From an uncultured Dehalococcoidia bacterium (lineage in GTDB: Bacteria > Chloroflexota > Dehalococcoidia > DSTF01 > JACRBR01): DNA of 64,000 bases. Positions within the stretch are counted from its first letter, which is position 1. Every line of letters begins with the position of its first letter. The notes beneath the pieces are model-generated. The model was not told where the DNA came from. It did no database searches and worked only from the letters and a program-made list of their open reading frames with translations. The position numbers and the translations under genes were made by a program. Positions 24,552-47,537 of the stretch are shown here, in pieces. Location: contig CAYJMG010000004.1 of NCBI GenBank assembly GCA_964371355.1, forward strand, positions 62,041 to 126,040. The letters run 5' to 3'.

Positions 24552-25955
24552 ATGGGGGATCTCGCGCTTCGACGGGTAGGTGGAGCGGCGGCGGCGGCGG
24601 TGCTGGCATCGCCGATTCTGTTCCTGGCCGCAGCCCGGGCCTTCCCGGCCATCGACGGCCTGCAGATGCACTTCCACTTGCACTTCTGGATTGTGGGTGT
24701 GACCGCGTTGGCATCGGCGATCGCGTGCGCGATCGTGATTTCGGGAGCGAAGACGCTGCGCGAGACACGGCTGCTGTTCCTGGCGCTGGCGTTCCTGTCA
24801 ATCGCGGCGGTGTTCTCGGTACACGGTCTGTTGACGCCGGGCGTGATCAAGAACGAGTTCTACATGGCACTCGGTGTTTCCGCGTGGGTCAGCGTCATGC
24901 TGGGGTCGCTACTGGTGGCGCTGAGCGCGGTCGAGCTGCCTGACGGCGTGGACCGCTTCGTGCGGAAACGCGGCGGCATGATCTTCGCGTGGTTCGCGAC
25001 GGGCCTTGCGTCGTACATCCTCGTGAGCTGGAACATCGAAGGATGGCTGGACGACGTGCCGACCGACGACCGGACGGTGCAGTACGGCATCGCGTCGGCG
25101 TCGACGGCGCTGTTCGCGTTCGCGCTGTACCGGTACGCGCAGGCGTGGTTCTTCGCGCGGCTGCCCTCGCAAGCTGTGATGGCGGCTGCGCTCGGGCTGC
25201 TGGTGCAGGTGCCGCCGATCCTGCTCTGGGGGCAGGTGTGGCACCTGTCGTGGTGGGTATACCACTTCGCATACGGCGCGGCGTTCGTGGTGCTGTTCGC
25301 GGGGTGGGGGCTGGAGTGGCGGCGGGCGGGGTCGCTGAGCGCGATCGCTGAGGCGTTGTCGATGCGCGACGCGCTGGCGCAGCTCAACCGCGGGCGCGAC
25401 CAGCAGGTGATCGAGCTGGTGGACGCCATCGAGGCGAAGGACCACTACACCGTGGGGCACGTGCACCGGGTGGGGTCGCTGGCGTTCGAGATGGGAAAGC
25501 ATCTGGGGCTCGCCGCGACGGAGCTGCGCGAGGTGGTGCTGGCGGCGCAGATGCACGACGTGGGGAAGATCCACACGCCGACGGCGATCCTGCAGAAGCC
25601 CGGGGCGCTGACGAACGAGGAGACGGCGGAGATGCAGCGGCACACGCTGTTCGGGGGCGACATCGCGGGGCGCGTGCGGGCGCTGCGTGCGGTCTCGGGC
25701 GCGGTGCGGGCGCACCACGAGCGGTACGACGGGCGAGGGTATCCGGACGGGCTGCGCGGCGAGGCGATCCCGTTCGCGGCGCGGATCGTATCGGTGGCGG
25801 ACACGTATGACGCAATGACGACGAACCGGCCGTACCGCGAGGCGCTGTCGCACGAGGCGGCGGTAGCGGAGATCCGGCGGGTGCGCGGGACGCAGCTCGA
25901 CCCGCTGTGCGTGGATGCGTTTCTGGCGATGTTCGAGTCGTTGGCGGCGGCGTAA
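24552..25955 (+). CDS. multi-TM HD-GYP phosphodiesterase
   Basis: About 7 TM helices, then EAKDHYT, HDVGKI, HHERYDGRGYPDGL, VADTYDAM. Confidence 0.9.
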   Translation: MGDLALRRVGGAAAAAVLASPILFLAAARAFPAIDGLQMHFHLHFWIVGVTALASAIACAIVISGAKTLRETRLLFLALAFLSIAAVFSVHGLLTPGVIKNEFYMALGVSAWVSVMLGSLLVALSAVELPDGVDRFVRKRGGMIFAWFATGLASYILVSWNIEGWLDDVPTDDRTVQYGIASASTALFAFALYRYAQAWFFARLPSQAVMAAALGLLVQVPPILLWGQVWHLSWWVYHFAYGAAFVVLFAGWGLEWRRAGSLSAIAEALSMRDALAQLNRGRDQQVIELVDAIEAKDHYTVGHVHRVGSLAFEMGKHLGLAATELREVVLAAQMHDVGKIHTPTAILQKPGALTNEETAEMQRHTLFGGDIAGRVRALRAVSGAVRAHHERYDGRGYPDGLRGEAIPFAARIVSVADTYDAMTTNRPYREALSHEAAVAEIRRVRGTQLDPLCVDAFLAMFESLAAA

Positions 25956-41981: not shown

Positions 41982-42481
41982 TCGGGCTCCTCCTCTTTCG
42001 TCAGGACGATGGCGCCGATCATCGCGACCATGAGCAGGACGGAGGCGACCTCGAACGGGACGACGTAGGGCTTGAGGAAGGCCTCGCCGAGCGAGGCGGC
42101 GGTGGCACTGAAGGCGCCGCGGTCTGAGATGGCCCAGTCAGTATCGAGCGTGACGAAGACGACGACAGCGAGCACGAGACCGGCCAGCACCAGCGCGGGC
42201 ACCTGGAACACGGTTTCGGAGTTCTGGCGGTCGGCGGCGGGGGTGAGCATGACGGCGAAGGTCATGAGCACGCTGACGGCGCCGGCGTAGATCAGCACCT
42301 GGACGACGGCTACGAAATCGGCGGAGAGCACGATGTACATGCCCGCCGCGCCCACGAAGGTGAGGGCGAGGAACAGCACCGCCTGGATCAGCTCGCGGAC
42401 GGCCGCGACCATCAGGGCGCAGCCGACGGTGGTGGCGGCGAGGAGCCAGAAGGCGATGACGATGCCGTTGTCGGCGATCAT
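41978..42481 (-). CDS. nuoJ: NADH-quinone oxidoreductase subunit J
   Basis: ADFVAVVQVLIYAGAVSVL, PFEVASVLL. Confidence 0.94.
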   Translation of the reverse strand: MIADNGIVIAFWLLAATTVGCALMVAAVRELIQAVLFLALTFVGAAGMYIVLSADFVAVVQVLIYAGAVSVLMTFAVMLTPAADRQNSETVFQVPALVLAGLVLAVVVFVTLDTDWAISDRGAFSATAASLGEAFLKPYVVPFEVASVLLMVAMIGAIVLTKEEEPE

Positions 42482-43824
42482 GCTCGGCCTCCCTCGTGCG
42501 CGGCCGGTCTCCGCGGCGACTCTTCGAAGGACGACTGTGCCGCAAATTCGGCCGCGGTGACGGCCGGCAGCGACGGCACGTCGATGCCGGGGTAGAACCG
42601 CGGTCGCGTCGGGAAGCGCTGGAACTTCGGGGCGAAGAACTTCACGAAGCCGACGATGAGGGCGGCCGTGAGCGCGCCATTCACGGCGATGAACAGCGGG
42701 ATCCAGAACGCGGCGCTCCAGCCGCTCTCCTCCCACACCAGCACCTCGGCGGCGACGACGACGACGTTGATGATGGCCATCGGCGTCAGCCACTTCCAGG
42801 CGAAATTGAGGAGCTGGTCGATACGGAAGCGGGGCAGCGTGCCGCGGGTCCAGACGAAGAGGAAGTAGACGGTGTACACCTTGCCGATGAAGAGCATCCA
42901 GCCGGGGATGAGTTCGTCGAGCTTGTAGGTCCACCAGCCGCCGAGGAAGAGCGTGGCGATGATGGCGGAGACAGAGACGGCGTTGATCAGCTCGGCGGCA
43001 TAGAACAGGCCGAACTTCATGCCCGAGTACTCCGTGTGGTAGCCGCCGACGATCTCGGACTCGGCCTCGGCGATGTCGGCGGGTGTGCGATTGAGTTCAG
43101 CGGAGATGGCGAAGAAGTAGATGAGGAAAGCGAGGGGCTGGAGCATGACCATGAAGGCCCAGTTCTCCTCCTGGAAGAGGACGATGCCCTGCAGGTTCAT
43201 GGTGCCGGCGAACAGCACGACACCGAGCAGCCCGGCGACGATGGGGATCTCGTACGACACGAGCATGGCGATGACGCGCATCGCGCCGAAGAGCGAGTAC
43301 TTGTTGTTGCTGCTGTACCCCGCCATGAAGACGGAGAGCACGGCGAGGGACGACATGCCGAGGATGTACAACAGGCCGACGTCAAGGCTGGCGAGCACCA
43401 TGTGGCGGCCCCAGGGGACGACGGCGAAGACGGCGATGCCCGGCACAGTGAAGGCGATCGGTGCGACGGTGTAAATGAAGCCGGGTGCGGAGGCGGGCTG
43501 CAGCACTTCCTTCTGCATGAGCTTGATGGCGTCGGCGACGGGCTGCAGGAGGCCGAAAGGGCCGAGACGGTTGGGTCCCAGGCGCGACTGCATGCGGCCG
43601 ACGACGCGGCGCTCGACCCAGATGTTGATGATGGCAACGCCGCCGACGAAGGCGACAATGCCGATGGTGCCGAGCAAGCCGGAGATGACGTAGATCGACC
43701 AGTCCGGGAACCCCCAGTCCTCCAGGCGGCCGTAGATCATCCGCGTGAAATTCGAGAGGTCGCGCGCGTCCCACCAGTAGCCCGTGATCAAGTCCTGGAG
43801 CAAGCTCATCGGGAAGAGCGTCAT
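42478..43824 (-). CDS. nuoH: NADH-quinone oxidoreductase subunit H
   Basis: ERRVVGRMQSRLGPNR, QPVADAIKL, EAESEIVGGYHTEYSG, TLPRFRIDQL. Confidence 0.96.
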   Translation of the reverse strand: MTLFPMSLLQDLITGYWWDARDLSNFTRMIYGRLEDWGFPDWSIYVISGLLGTIGIVAFVGGVAIINIWVERRVVGRMQSRLGPNRLGPFGLLQPVADAIKLMQKEVLQPASAPGFIYTVAPIAFTVPGIAVFAVVPWGRHMVLASLDVGLLYILGMSSLAVLSVFMAGYSSNNKYSLFGAMRVIAMLVSYEIPIVAGLLGVVLFAGTMNLQGIVLFQEENWAFMVMLQPLAFLIYFFAISAELNRTPADIAEAESEIVGGYHTEYSGMKFGLFYAAELINAVSVSAIIATLFLGGWWTYKLDELIPGWMLFIGKVYTVYFLFVWTRGTLPRFRIDQLLNFAWKWLTPMAIINVVVVAAEVLVWEESGWSAAFWIPLFIAVNGALTAALIVGFVKFFAPKFQRFPTRPRFYPGIDVPSLPAVTAAEFAAQSSFEESPRRPAAHEGGRA

Positions 43825-44927
43825 CGGTCCAGCTCCCCCACGTTGATATCGATGCTGCCCAGCGTGACGATGGCGTCCGCGATGGTCTGGCCGACGGTCA
43901 TCTCGCGCAGGACGCTGAGGTTGATGAGCGAAGGCGCACGCACGTGCCAGCGGTAGGGGGCGGGGCCACCATCGCTGACGACGTAGAAGCCCAACTCGCC
44001 CTTCGGCGACTCCACGCGCGAGTACGCCTCGCCGGCGGGCGGGCGGAGGGCGAGGGGCACGTCGACCTTATGTGGGCCATCGGGAAGCTCGCCGACGGCC
44101 TGGCGGATGATGCGCAGACTCTGCTTCATCTCCTCGATCCGGATGGTCATGCGGTCGTACGCGTCGCCGTTGTAGCCGACGGGGATGTCGAACTTCATGC
44201 GGTCATACACGCAGTAGGGGTCCGCCTTGCGGATATCCCAGGCGATGCCGGTGCTGCGCAGCACGGGCCCGCTGAGCGAGGCGTTGATCGCGACCTCCGG
44301 TGTCACGACGCCCACGTCGCGGGCGCGCATCATGATGATCTCGTTGCCGACGATCAGCTCCTCGTACTCCTCGAATGCCTTCGGCAGCTCGTCGTTCACC
44401 AGCTTGTCGAGAGCGGGGAGGAACTCGTCGGGGATATCGAAGGCGACACCGCCGATCCGCATGTAGTTGGTGGTGAGGCGGGCGCCACAGGTCATTTCGA
44501 AGAGGTCGAGGACGCGCTCGCGGTCGCGGAAGCACCACATGACGGGGGTCTGCCAGGCGCCGCAGTCATTGATGAAGGCGCCCGTGGCCATGCAGTGGCT
44601 GGCGACGCGCTGGAGTTCGTTGAAGATGACGCGGAGATACTGGGCGCGTTCCGGCACCTCGATGCCTGCGAGCTTCTCGACCGAGAGACAGTAGCCCAGA
44701 TTGCCTGCCATGGCGGCGAGGTAGTCCATGCGGTCGGTGAACGGGATGTTCTGAGTGTACGTGCGCTCCTCGGCCAGCTTCTCCATGCTGCGGTGGAGGT
44801 AGCCGACGACCATCTTCACGTCGACGATGCGTTCGCCGTCGATCTTCGCGACCATGCGGAACACGCCGTGCGTGGACGGGTGCTGCGGTCCGATGTTGAC
44901 TTCGACGGGCTCTGACTTGATAGGCAT
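43821..44927 (-). CDS. nuoD: NADH-quinone oxidoreductase subunit D
   Basis: NIGPQHPSTHGV, GYLHRSMEK, DRMDY, ESPKGE, GELDR; no NiFe CxxC motifs. Confidence 0.95.
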   Translation of the reverse strand: MPIKSEPVEVNIGPQHPSTHGVFRMVAKIDGERIVDVKMVVGYLHRSMEKLAEERTYTQNIPFTDRMDYLAAMAGNLGYCLSVEKLAGIEVPERAQYLRVIFNELQRVASHCMATGAFINDCGAWQTPVMWCFRDRERVLDLFEMTCGARLTTNYMRIGGVAFDIPDEFLPALDKLVNDELPKAFEEYEELIVGNEIIMMRARDVGVVTPEVAINASLSGPVLRSTGIAWDIRKADPYCVYDRMKFDIPVGYNGDAYDRMTIRIEEMKQSLRIIRQAVGELPDGPHKVDVPLALRPPAGEAYSRVESPKGELGFYVVSDGGPAPYRWHVRAPSLINLSVLREMTVGQTIADAIVTLGSIDINVGELDR

Positions 44928-44935
44928 CGTCGGGG

Positions 44936-44972
44936 CCCTCACCCCGGCCCCACTCCCGGAACGGGAGAGGGC
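44936..44972 (+). repeat. CCCTCACCCC...GGGAGAGGG-type palindromic intergenic repeat
   Basis: ccctcaccccggccccactcccggaacgggagagggc in the nuoC-nuoD spacer. Confidence 0.55.
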
Positions 44973-44983
44973 GTGCGCGTGTC

Positions 44984-45535
44984 TTACTGGCCGGTGCCCG
45001 CGTGCTTCGGGCGGAACTCCTGGCCGGTCTGGCCGGGCACCTGCTCCGGGAACTGGCTGAGGCCGGGCTTGCGTCCCCCGGGGAGCGCCATGAAGTCCTT
45101 GCGCAGCGGATGTCCGGGGAAGGAGTCCCACAGAAACAGCCGCGTGAGCTCGGGATGGCCCTCGAACCGGACGCCCATCAGGTCGTAGACCTCGCGCTCC
45201 TGGAGCAGCGCGCCGGACCAGAGCGGCGAGATGGACGGGATGACGGGCTGGTCGCGATCGCAGGGCACTTTGACCTCGAAGAGGTGGTTCTGAGCGAGCG
45301 ACGCGAAGTGGTAGACCATGTCGATACGCGTGATCATGTCGACGCTGCAAAGCTGGGTGAGGAACTTGCCGTCGAGCTGCTCGTCGTCCCGGATGACGCG
45401 CATCGCCTCGAACATGCGGGCGGGAGCGAGCGTAACGTAGCCATCGGCGACCGACTGGACGGCGTCGGGCAGCGTCGCGCGGATGCGATCGGCGACCTCG
45501 GGCCCGGGCAGGGTGACCGTCTTCGGGTGCGGCAT
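44984..45535 (-). CDS. nuoC: NADH-quinone oxidoreductase subunit C
   Basis: EREVYDLMGVRFEGHP, FPGHPLRKDF. Confidence 0.94.
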   Translation of the reverse strand: MPHPKTVTLPGPEVADRIRATLPDAVQSVADGYVTLAPARMFEAMRVIRDDEQLDGKFLTQLCSVDMITRIDMVYHFASLAQNHLFEVKVPCDRDQPVIPSISPLWSGALLQEREVYDLMGVRFEGHPELTRLFLWDSFPGHPLRKDFMALPGGRKPGLSQFPEQVPGQTGQEFRPKHAGTGQ

Positions 45536-45906
45536 CAGAGCCACTCCATGGCGCGCTTCCGCCACGCGTACGCATAACCGACGAAGAGGATGGCGATGAA
45601 GATGAGGGCCTCCACGAAGGCGTACAGACCGAGCTGGCGGTAGGCGACGGCCCACGGGTACAGGAAGACGGCTTCGACGTCGAAGACGACGAAGAGCAGG
45701 CCGAACAGGTAGTAGCGCACGTTGTAGCGGACGTGGGCGTCGCCGATGGGCACCATGCCGCACTCGTAAACGGACTCCTTGATGGGGTCGGGCTTGCTTG
45801 GGCGGAGCTTGAACACGCCGAGCGCAACCGAGGCCACGATCGGGATGAGCGGGAAGATGACGGCAAAGACGAGGAGGAAGCCGGCCCGTCCGAACTGGTC
45901 GATCAC
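45535..45906 (-). CDS. nuoA: NADH-quinone oxidoreductase subunit A
   Basis: YECG, RYYLFGLLFVVFDVEAVFLYPWA; GTG start with GAGG RBS. Confidence 0.95.
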   Translation of the reverse strand: MIDQFGRAGFLLVFAVIFPLIPIVASVALGVFKLRPSKPDPIKESVYECGMVPIGDAHVRYNVRYYLFGLLFVVFDVEAVFLYPWAVAYRQLGLYAFVEALIFIAILFVGYAYAWRKRAMEWL

Positions 45907-46221
45907 TGGCGCCTCGCGACATGGGCGGGACGCCGTCCCGCGTCCACGTCCATACTCCGGAACCGGGTGAGGACGGGCCGGAGCACCGATCCGGCGGCCA
46001 TCCGGTGCGCAGCCGAAGCTAGAAGCCGGGCCCGAGGCATGCTGGCCGAAGCTGCGCCCAAACTTTGTGAATTCTGGCGCGAAGCCTATCACAGCTATAG
46101 CACCCGAACAATGGAGCGGGAAAGCGAGGGAAGGTCGCGGCTTCGATGCGGATTCCGGCGCGCGCCAATCCGGGAAACGGGGTGTCAGACCAAGAACGTC
46201 CCCTTAGAGGCCATTGCGCCC

Positions 46222-46248
46222 TCAAGTGAGGGGAAACCCTGCCGATTC
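46222..46248 (+). promoter_or_regulatory. sigma-28 (FliA/WhiG)-type promoter
   Basis: TCAA-N15-GCCGATTC versus consensus TAAA-N15-GCCGATAA, exact 15-nt spacing. Confidence 0.65.
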
Positions 46249-46286
46249 TCCAGATAGCAGAAGGAAGCCTATCTGGAGGTAACGCA

Positions 46287-46376
46287 ATGTCCCGCTTCAT
46301 CCCTGCCGCTCTCGTCGCCGCGAACTTCGTGGCCGTCACCGCCCTCGCGGTGGCACCGTGGATCTGGGGCCGGTAA
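46287..46376 (+). CDS. 29-aa hydrophobic peptide MSRFIPAALVAANFVAVTALAVAPWIWGR (not in ORF track)
   Basis: GGAGGT 6 nt before the ATG, almost all codons G/C-ending, TAA stop, terminator immediately downstream. Confidence 0.8.
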   Translation: MSRFIPAALVAANFVAVTALAVAPWIWGR

Positions 46377-46396
46377 CCAGACCGGTCCAAGCAGCG

Positions 46397-46421
46397 GGCC
46401 GCCCATGGGGGCGGCCTTTTT
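46397..46421 (+). terminator. intrinsic terminator after the peptide gene
   Basis: GGCCGCCC-atgg-GGGCGGCC-TTTTT. Confidence 0.85.
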
Positions 46422-46466
46422 GCTCTCCGGCGGCAACCGCGAGCCGCCGATACTCCACTGATTCGC

Positions 46467-47042
46467 ATGGACATGACCCGCCGGCTGGGCGCCATTCACA
46501 CACACAGGGGAGCAGCCAGCGCCACATTTGCGCTGACGCTGCTGGCCGTGCAGTTCGCCGCGCTCCGCTTCGCGCCGTCGGAGATCCTGGTGCGGGTCAT
46601 CCTGCCCGCGACGATCATCGCCGTCCCGCTAGCGCTGTGGGTCTACCGGGACCGGATCGGCGTGTGGGTGATGTACGTCGGCCTCGCCGCCAACCTCGCG
46701 CCGATACTCGCAAACGGCGGGCTGATGCCCATCCACTACGACACAGTGGTAAGCGCGATCGGTGAGGAACGAGCCGCGCGGTACACGCCCGGCGAATGGG
46801 TCGCGGGCTCCAAGGACGTGCTCGTAGCCGAGGACGAAGGCCGCCTGATGGAACTGGGCGACCAGATCATCATCCGTACGGCGAGCGGCGGCATGGTGGC
46901 CAGCCCGGGAGACGTCGTGGTGTGGTGCGGGCTGCTGATCCTCACGGCGGAGGCTTCGATCGCCTGGCAGCGTCGCCAGCGGGCCGAGCGCGCCGTTATG
47001 TCGCGGCCGCACCAAGCAGCGGAGGGGGGCGCAGCCACATAG
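46467..47042 (+). CDS. DUF5317-like membrane protein
   Basis: About 4 TM helices with N...ILANGGLMP, LGD.I and SPGDV motifs recognised as DUF5317; start may be 46473. Confidence 0.75.
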   Translation: MDMTRRLGAIHTHRGAASATFALTLLAVQFAALRFAPSEILVRVILPATIIAVPLALWVYRDRIGVWVMYVGLAANLAPILANGGLMPIHYDTVVSAIGEERAARYTPGEWVAGSKDVLVAEDEGRLMELGDQIIIRTASGGMVASPGDVVVWCGLLILTAEASIAWQRRQRAERAVMSRPHQAAEGGAAT

Positions 47043-47193
47043 ACGTGGCACGCGCCGCCCCGCCACCCGGCGCCTGCGATAGCGAGGGCAACAACTTTCG
47101 CAGACCCCGACTATCCCATCGTACGGCGGCATTCTCACGAGGTTCTCGCCAGAAAACCGCGACCGCAGATTCGTCAGAAGTGCCGGAACACGC

Positions 47194-47220
47194 GAAAAGC
47201 CCGGGGGTACCGGGCTTTTC
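47194..47220. terminator. bidirectional intrinsic terminator
   Basis: GAAAAGCCCGG-gggta-CCGGGCTTTTC between convergent genes. Confidence 0.8.
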
Positions 47221-47252
47221 TGTGATGTCAAGAGGGCGTTCCTGAGCTGATC

Positions 47253-47537
<285 letters not shown>

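Follow-up and report, generated by a model that had tools for sequence, protein, structure and literature searches.

What is a reading frame of only 29 codons doing in front of a small membrane-protein gene, and do the two products work together? This question is raised by a stretch of 64,000 nucleotides from an uncultured Dehalococcoidia bacterium (GenBank assembly GCA_964371355.1, contig CAYJMG010000004.1), the whole of which is termed the window here. An earlier look at its letters, the sequence-only reading, had proposed the precursor of a peptide signal and its membrane maturase. It is found here that the short frame is a real gene, and that it forms, together with the membrane protein DUF5317 and a large activator, a co-inherited three-gene module. 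Such a module is undescribed. It may have a signalling role, with the peptide either processed or kept as an intact partner. The two genes in the window are as follows.

46287 to 46376, forward strand: micropeptide gene of 29 codons; product MSRFIPAALVAANFVAVTALAVAPWIWGR, predicted to span the membrane with a single helix, its N-terminus basic (R3) and its tip A-P-W-x-W.
46467 to 47042, forward strand: gene for the DUF5317 membrane protein of 191 residues, which matches PF17248 and, in its model, combines four long helices with a small beta region.

The 29-codon open reading frame (ORF) is a genuine conserved gene, far beyond chance. Its ribosome site, GGAGG at 46275-46279, stands 7 nucleotides 5' of the ATG, and GC content over the three codon positions is 0.63, 0.57 and 0.87, the third-position value of the neighbouring genes being 0.86-0.95. 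Both the ribosome site and the host-like codons pointed out by the sequence-only reading are thereby borne out. Beside DUF5317, in the window and in 19 related genomes, the length of the frame is held at 27-29 codons, each time with a GGAGG-type site. The consensus of the peptide in these relatives is M-x-R-[FY]-[IL]-P...A-P-W-x-W-[G], in which M1, R3, A8, P24, W25 and W27 are invariant. When 29 distinct nucleotide versions are compared, entropy at the three codon positions is 0.80, 0.52 and 1.13, highest at the third, a pattern typical of a translated frame. The peptide is encoded once per genome. Its hydrophobic stretch is of about 19 residues, with a stripe of alanines at A8, A16 and A23. 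A tail of 4-10 residues follows a conserved small-residue/Pro junction. The predicted topology would leave the basic N-terminus inside and the A-P-W-x-W tip outside.

A strict DNA pattern of the gene, searched in one genome per species of the whole collection, matched at 26 places. At 22 of these, peptides of 28-29 residues of the same type are encoded, all in Chloroflexota metagenome-assembled genomes, labelled Chloroflexota, Chloroflexi, Dehalococcoidia or Chloroflexia. The other four places (in Mesorhizobium, Terracidiphilus, a deltaproteobacterium and Streptomyces) encode unrelated products of 10-50 residues. The gene had been called unannotated, which is not wholly the case: the exact 29-residue protein is already present in public collections (NCBI, Logan, ENA), where close relatives go by the name 'hypothetical protein'. 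The micropeptide is under-annotated rather than unknown. No Pfam or NCBIfam family was matched by the window peptide at E up to 1.

The partners of the peptide were surveyed in 41 genomes, namely the window's own and 40 relatives, of which 24 belong to the same family and 16 to other families of the order. A DUF5317 ortholog is present in 23 of the 24 family genomes, and in the 16 others in G029 only. The peptide occurs in the same 23 genomes and in G029, while one 19.7-bit match in G039 is taken as chance. The third gene encodes an activator of about 1,090 residues, whose full-length orthologs carry AAA_16, a MalT-like tetratricopeptide-repeat (TPR) region and a C-terminal BTAD. It is found in all 24 family genomes and, again, in G029 alone among the 16. 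The family genome that has neither DUF5317 nor the peptide, G002, is 67% complete. In the 24 other genomes with DUF5317, the peptide gene adjoins it in 19, lies elsewhere in 4 and is cut off by a contig end in 1. Three arrangements of the module are seen.

Activator, peptide and DUF5317 contiguous: G011 and G029.
Activator followed by peptide, DUF5317 elsewhere: G013, G017, G021 and G024, and the public loci L060, L070, L075 and L077 (L070 has the same peptide and arrangement as G024).
Peptide followed by DUF5317 beside nuoA, activator elsewhere: the window and most relatives.

Thus, the peptide gene always adjoins one of its two partners, DUF5317 or the activator, and the three genes are a co-inherited module. 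In the window's lineage this module is split: the peptide stands beside DUF5317, and the activator is on another contig (C25), with no peptide gene after it. About 40 nucleotides 3' of this activator lies a convergent gene, which in G013 comes after the peptide gene instead. In both of its positions, by DUF5317 and by the activator, the peptide gene retains its upstream element and its terminator, so it has been relocated as a unit. Upstream of DUF5317 at locus L018 (genome G017), the peptide ORF looks deleted, and what remains is the promoter-like CCGATAC, an ATG with TAA a few codons on, and the terminator hairpin. G017 has an intact copy 3' of its activator on another contig. A similar ATG-TAA remnant was noticed at L016.

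The signals around the peptide gene and before DUF5317 are these.

46203 to 46249, forward strand: conserved promoter-like upstream element, three blocks shared by 27 orthologous loci.
46248 to 46280, forward strand: 5' leader with an inverted repeat, CTCCAGATAG (46248-46257) and CTATCTGGAG (46269-46278), the latter overlapping GGAGG.
46396 to 46427, forward strand: intrinsic-terminator-like hairpin (46396-46417) followed by the T run TTTTTGCT, which would end the micropeptide transcript.
46446 to 46456, forward strand: second promoter-like element GCCGATACTCC, ending 10 nucleotides before the DUF5317 ATG and including a -10-like GATACT.

The three blocks of the upstream element are C.TA.G at about 46203-46208, CCTCAAGT at 46220-46227 and CCCTGCCGAT at 46237-46246. 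Across the 27 orthologous loci, the consensus is c.c.TA.g.gc-N8-cCTCAAGT..ggg....CCCTGCCGAT, and it is identical in kind whether the peptide gene adjoins DUF5317 or the activator. This element may be the target of the co-inherited BTAD activator. A sigma-70 consensus scan returned no site. The promoter motif named by the sequence-only reading, TCAA-N15-GCCGAT, is indeed present at 46222-46246 within the conserved block. By itself, however, it is weak: the window has one match against 0.11 expected, and at least one match arose in 11 of 100 shuffles. It was observed that the stretch 46220-46241 can fold into two mutually exclusive hairpins, CCCT-CAAGTG-AGGG and AGGG-GAAA-CCCT. These are probably not the conserved feature, as the GGG is absent in L019, L066, L072 and L073.

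In the leader, the ribosome site is paired with a 5' CTCC in the minimum-energy fold of 21 of 27 orthologous sequences (mean z -1.16), and RNAalifold on a MAFFT alignment of the leaders gave no consensus structure. The repeat may matter only if transcription begins upstream of the CTCC (46248-46251). No Rfam match was returned within 45800-47400, and a sequencing-run search listed no RNA run that covers 46100-47100. The terminator noted earlier is borne out as a terminator-like hairpin, which is the only such site in 45800-47400, and a GC-rich hairpin with a T-containing tail stands 3' of the stop codon in 25 of 28 orthologous loci. The micropeptide gene is monocistronic in design. Past the terminator, (G/T)CGATAC precedes DUF5317 in most orthologous loci, including those without a peptide gene. 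Between GCCGATACTCC and the start codon there is no ribosome-site-like sequence, which suggests that the DUF5317 mRNA is leaderless or has a very short leader. With a terminator after the peptide and a separate GCCGATACTCC element for DUF5317, the two genes are designed as separate units and not as one operon. The proposal that an internal terminator doses precursor over enzyme therefore falls, since the peptide gene is self-contained, occurs also far from DUF5317, and leaves DUF5317 to its own element.

The membrane protein is a DUF5317, as its motifs had suggested. The profile search that had been suggested gave PF17248 at E 2.7e-14 and 53.9 bits against a gathering cut-off of 25, residues 41-159 aligning on positions 34-149 of the 151-position profile. 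The first 33 profile positions have no match in the window protein. A genome-wide profile search returned the same match, and a Pfam scan at E up to 1 found PF17248 as the sole family. The AlphaFold2 (AF2) model (pLDDT 93.9) has helices at 2-35, 39-60, 64-82 and 147-178, in agreement with the four or so membrane passes predicted earlier, and a small beta region at 87-145. When the loop alone (residues 80-152) was modelled, pLDDT was 56. The motifs N83-G-G-x-M-P88, L.D and S146-x-G-D149, singled out from the sequence, fall in invariant or near-invariant columns in alignments of 105 and 81 sequences. In the latter, which spans two phyla, M87, P88, D132, G148 and D149 are invariant and N83, G84, G85, L130 and S146 nearly so; the two conserved aspartate motifs thus hold up. 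By the positive-inside rule, these residues, including D132 and D149, would lie at the outer membrane face, on the same side as the peptide tip. DUF5317 is probably an enzyme with an invariant aspartate pair at that face.

No solved structure or family was demonstrably related to DUF5317. Foldseek against the PDB gave nothing at E <= 0.001, VIA-align returned generic helical bundles only (best Z 7.4, designed bundles), a profile search of PDB sequences yielded only E > 1 and no LspA, and the ESM Atlas search gave no usable match. Within the literature library that was searched, neither DUF5317 nor PF17248 is named in any paper. Some members are fused at their C-terminal side to efflux-type transporters of the major facilitator superfamily (MFS), the DUF5317 part preceding MFS_1/MFS_3 in L114 and L115 (Chloroflexota) and in L194 and L206 (Actinomycetota). 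In addition, at L101, L105, L106, L112 and L159, an ORF whose C-terminus resembles an MFS transporter in sequence ends just upstream of DUF5317.

Does the pairing extend beyond the window's family? DUF5317 is present in 92 of 301 sampled Chloroflexota genomes (about a third) and in 100 of 251 sampled Actinomycetota genomes (40%). At distant loci, ORFs of 22-61 codons were counted if they lay on the same strand, between 330 nucleotides upstream and 90 nucleotides inside the DUF5317 gene, and combined a ribosome site with a basic N-terminus and a single helix of strong hydrophobicity. Of 68 distant Chloroflexota loci, 20 carry such a single-helix ORF. The antisense strand gave 0 of 68, and the surroundings of lspA genes from this phylum, taken as controls, gave 0 of 29 and 0 of 29. 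A stricter rule (helix, A-P and short tail) gave 15 of 69 loci versus 1 of 69, 0 of 29 and 0 of 29 in the controls. Under a Trp-tip rule applied to whole loci, 25 same-strand ORFs were counted in 22 of 70 loci, and 3 were antisense. The background rate of the window's genome predicts about 1.7, and 29 lspA loci had none. By any rule, 36 of the 70 Chloroflexota loci have a candidate. The inspection of homologue flanks proposed in the sequence-only reading has therefore paid off, as small hydrophobic ORFs, many of them Trp-tipped, stand by distant DUF5317 genes and not in control regions.

The tails of the distant peptides include GAPNDWPLG, GAPEGWPMP, SGAGIHWT, GSDAGSQWGPS and GAPEDGGG, the window variant being VAPWIWGR. 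One subfamily of 47 residues comprises 39 public clusters, all unnamed or 'hypothetical', with invariant K-x-N-R-Q-H-I-Q and M-L-V-L-G-x-G-A-P. In L109, L163, L168 and L195, two tandem Trp-tipped micropeptide genes stand beside a single DUF5317, and the two copies in L195 are nearly identical. The small ORF of Anaerolineales-type loci directly adjoins the start of DUF5317. Five distant counterparts matched no Pfam family, and their NCBIfam matches were sub-threshold noise.

In a quick tree built from 112 DUF5317 proteins, a set of 43 that includes the window's has 38 with an adjacent peptide, 3 with one elsewhere and 2 without; the peptide label changes 8 times, against a mean of 36.8 after shuffling. 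Twelve rows scored as 'none' in this tree turned out afterwards to have a Trp-tipped ORF at another place in their locus. The S-K-D-V loop motif of DUF5317 goes with A-P-junction peptides and Y-x-N with A-G...W-tip peptides, a pattern that may reflect co-evolution and is confounded by kinship, S-K-D being restricted to the clade with A-P junctions. In Actinomycetota, Trp-tipped ORFs lie divergently upstream in 3 of 28 loci, which is suggestive though not significant by count. Two of the DUF5317-MFS fusions have Trp-tipped ORFs divergently upstream. The kinship of the small-ORF subfamilies rests on position, architecture and the tip motif. The pairing of peptide and DUF5317 is judged to be far older than the window's family. 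It was also considered that the peptide might be a split-off first helix of DUF5317. This idea was rejected, because distant DUF5317 proteins with a full start (profile matched from position 2-4) carry the small ORF as well.

The activator recurs at a distance too. In 5 of 5 distant loci tested, the gene 5' of the small ORF ends in BTAD. Genes 3' in distant loci carry HD_5, an HD-GYP-type domain (L089, L091, L103), PAS-GAF (L085) or response regulators (L108, L187), while in L026 no HD_5, PAS-GAF or response-regulator gene was recognised downstream. None of these three kinds follows DUF5317 in the window, where the only HD_5 gene is about 20 kb off (25419-25904, forward strand, inside a 1,215-codon open frame). 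The genome has 13 HD_5 matches in all, and this one has no positional or motif tie to the micropeptide. The sequence-only reading had cast membrane enzymes of cyclic di-GMP (c-di-GMP) metabolism as candidate receptors on the strength of a shared promoter motif. This link fails, because the motif occurs nowhere else in the window and its relaxed form is not enriched in the genome. As marks of a regulon, both that form (TCAAG-N13-17-CCGAT, 26 matches versus about 19 expected) and CCGATAC (420 versus 421) were rejected. It is more plausible that the activator, rather than the c-di-GMP enzymes, is the receptor or regulator of the peptide. Taken together, the sequence-only reading is partly supported, being right on the pair and on how to test it and wrong on the operon logic, and it missed the activator.

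How might the three proteins act together? We tentatively favour a mechanism in which DUF5317 acts on the outward tip of the peptide and signalling follows, and put its chances slightly below even. In such a course of events, the activator, a STAND-type protein (signal transduction ATPase with numerous domains) of AAA_16-TPR-winged helix-turn-helix/BTAD build, would drive the conserved promoter of the peptide gene. The peptide would insert in the membrane with its tip outward, and DUF5317 would cleave or modify this tip where a small residue meets Pro-Trp. What results, whether a short Trp peptide set free or the stub left behind, would then feed back on signalling proteins. Contact between peptide and DUF5317, any processing, and control of the peptide promoter by the activator are all conjectural steps here. 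This mechanism is proposed because DUF5317 has an invariant site like that of an enzyme, the junction in the peptide is conserved, peptide genes occur in tandem, DUF5317 is fused to MFS transporters, the peptide gene is an independent transcription unit, and the gene order is regulator, then peptide. The junction, the tandem genes and the fusions, along with the relocation of the gene as its own transcription unit, suggest that the peptide is substrate-like. In a much more specific form, which we consider unlikely, DUF5317 would be the founding member of a new group of membrane enzymes, either di-aspartyl peptidases or modifiers of Trp tips, and would have genome-encoded Trp-tipped micropeptides as its clients. 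The tail PWIWGR would be a diffusible signal for the TPR region of the STAND activator, and the activator would drive both the peptide promoter and c-di-GMP-degrading outputs. The whole would be an RRNPP-like system made of unrelated parts, in Chloroflexota and, with MFS-fused DUF5317, in Actinomycetota.

Several points weigh against tip processing and signalling. The hydrophobic stretch has the length of a membrane anchor and not that of a typical signal peptide, and the alanine stripe and tryptophans would fit a resident membrane helix equally well. A private signal would not usually keep its Trp tip across genera, even phyla. Comparison by Pfam, Foldseek, hhalign, VIA-align and PDB profile brought out no significant similarity between DUF5317 and a peptidase. 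The co-occurrence counts represent few independent events, since the genomes are kin. As many as 34 of the 70 Chloroflexota DUF5317 loci have no small ORF within about 1.5 kb, and in Actinomycetota a same-strand upstream small ORF is seen in 0 of 26 loci. Finally, the small-ORF subfamilies are, by the comparisons made, not linkable by sequence statistics: hhalign of the window peptide family against a distant small-ORF family was not significant, and the best match of the peptide profile among 2,602 small ORFs had E 0.36.

The strongest rival, which we regard as possible, is that the intact peptide is a stable accessory subunit that binds DUF5317 helix to helix and tunes or completes it, with nothing cleaved or released. 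An anchor-length helix with Trp at the interface position and an alanine stripe is what such a subunit might look like. The inner-side N-terminal motif is strongly conserved in two subfamilies and the tip across phyla, the small ORF abutting the DUF5317 start in Anaerolineales-type loci suggests coupled synthesis, and the co-inheritance data fit a subunit equally well as they do tip processing. A subunit is, however, less easily reconciled with a peptide gene that, in the window's family, brings its own promoter and terminator and is often remote from DUF5317, or with tandem peptide genes beside a single DUF5317 gene. The invariant acidic site of DUF5317 likewise suggests chemistry and not scaffolding. 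A weak search for natural peptide-DUF5317 fusions found none, only proteins of 87 and 91 residues. Complex prediction for the distant L085 pair gave ipSAE values of 0.13 and 0.07, which speak neither for nor against contact.

It is improbable that the peptide is an independent small membrane protein, such as a stress peptide or a type I toxin, for which the DUF5317 and activator neighbourhood is inherited order with no shared function. A self-contained transcription unit, in which folding of the leader may hide the ribosome site, would suit such a protein, as would the nuoA / peptide / DUF5317 / ferredoxin block kept within one family. The pairing nevertheless holds without a nearby nuoA in G011 and G029, and spans Chloroflexota families whose DUF5317 proteins are only about 25-35% identical. 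Away from DUF5317, moreover, the peptide gene always follows the same activator, and a single copy per genome also speaks against it.

A conserved non-coding element or small RNA with an incidental ORF is very improbable. Promoter-like and terminator elements do bracket a unit of about 170 nucleotides, yet variation within it peaks at the third codon position, the 27-29-codon length, start, ribosome site and stop are all conserved, and Rfam has no match. The notion of a cis-acting leader peptide, by which translation of a Trp-rich ORF and the terminator would attenuate transcription into DUF5317, can be dismissed as barely credible: there are two Trp codons in the last five and a terminator 19 nucleotides on, upstream of DUF5317, but the ORF-terminator unit stands alone before a convergent gene and not DUF5317 in L043, L050, L060, L070, L075 and L077, which contradicts a trp-type attenuator, the entire peptide is conserved and not the Trp codons alone, DUF5317 has its own promoter-like element past the terminator, and Rfam again shows nothing.

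The favoured tip-processing mechanism invites comparison with known peptide systems. In RRNPP systems (Rap-Phr, NprR-NprX, PlcR-PapR, PrgX), the order of regulator then peptide gene is typical. A comparable order is seen in 6 genomes from the window's family and at the 5 of 5 distant loci, where a short peptide gene lies directly 3' of a TPR regulator in the same orientation, and the candidate active part would be the C-terminal tail of 4-10 residues. Unlike them, the regulator is a STAND NTPase of about 1,090 residues (AAA_16, MalT-like TPR, BTAD) and not a helix-turn-helix-TPR protein of about 300-450. The host is a member of Chloroflexota and not of Firmicutes, and the module includes a dedicated membrane protein, DUF5317. 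The window's genome departs from the order of regulator then peptide, its regulator lying on C25 and its peptide gene elsewhere. In Rgg-SHP and ComR-ComS, short hydrophobic peptides are matured by a membrane protease and exported. The resemblance lies in a whole precursor of about 25-30 residues that is hydrophobic with a basic N-terminus, in a C-terminal end as candidate active part, and in a membrane protein as candidate maturase. DUF5317, however, has no Pfam match to enzymes of the site-2-protease type, and the regulator is of another class.

The sequence-only reading had loosely likened DUF5317 to signal peptidase II, LspA (MEROPS A8, PF01252; 5DIR). As is predicted for DUF5317, LspA is a small four-helix membrane protein with two conserved outer-face aspartates, and its client is a hydrophobic helix ending in small residues. 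Kinship of the two could not be demonstrated. Against 35 Chloroflexota LspA sequences, hhalign gave a probability of 0.6% and E 0.1, not significant, and it is in this insignificant alignment that S-x-G-D149 falls on the second conserved Asp motif of LspA. In VIA-align, 5dir_A ranked 22 with Z 5.9, within noise amid generic helical bundles (rmsd 7.1 Å over 102 aligned residues, 18% identity). Furthermore, the window genome has a separate canonical LspA, and the junction residue of the peptide is Pro or Gly and not a lipid-modified Cys. To GxGD aspartyl proteases (presenilin/SPP, prepilin peptidases) there was no Pfam match at E up to 1, the likeness being limited to x-G-D.

AgrD/AgrB and ComX/ComQ, the precursor-maturase pairs invoked for this locus, share with it a small precursor gene adjoining a candidate maturase gene, and the key residue of ComX is a Trp near the C-terminus. 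The parallel goes no further at the level of families: DUF5317 has no Pfam or NCBIfam match to AgrB or to the polyprenyl synthase ComQ, the window locus has no histidine-kinase receptor, and the precursor here is a membrane helix. The peptidase-containing ATP-binding cassette (ABC) exporters, or PCATs, transport leader-bearing peptides. A DUF5317 placed N-terminal to an efflux-type MFS has the domain order expected of such a process-and-export machine, although the transporter is MFS and not ABC, a C39 peptidase domain is lacking and the window's DUF5317 is unfused. For an accessory subunit, the models would be MgrB-PhoQ, AcrZ-AcrB, KdpF-KdpABC and CydX, in which small membrane proteins bind larger ones. 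Like those, the peptides are of 27-48 residues with a single helix, are encoded beside the presumed partner and were overlooked by annotation. They differ in having no sequence relation to them, a regulated transcription unit of their own, an activator as third partner, and tandem copies at some loci.

As for the surroundings in the window, the nuo operon lies upstream on the other strand, and a 2x[4Fe-4S] ferredoxin and an aminotransferase are convergent downstream; the gene order nuoA, peptide, DUF5317, ferredoxin is conserved within one family. By eye, nuoA, nuoC, nuoD and nuoH were recognised in this order in 42478-46092 (reverse strand), and neither nuoB nor nuoE-G is interspersed. Relatives share a short conserved stretch ahead of nuoA, which shows up as spurious peptide matches of the type 'EFVNFYAIA'.

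Through the Trp-tipped micropeptides and the STAND activator, DUF5317 gains a concrete testable hypothesis. If the peptide is a resident partner, it would still represent a widespread family of small proteins that annotation has mostly missed. To our knowledge, no peptide-based signalling has been characterised in Chloroflexota or Actinomycetota. By means of this undescribed module, a peptide signal may be made or sensed there; if the peptide is indeed processed or sensed, peptide signalling would exist in these phyla with a new membrane enzyme and a new class of receptor.

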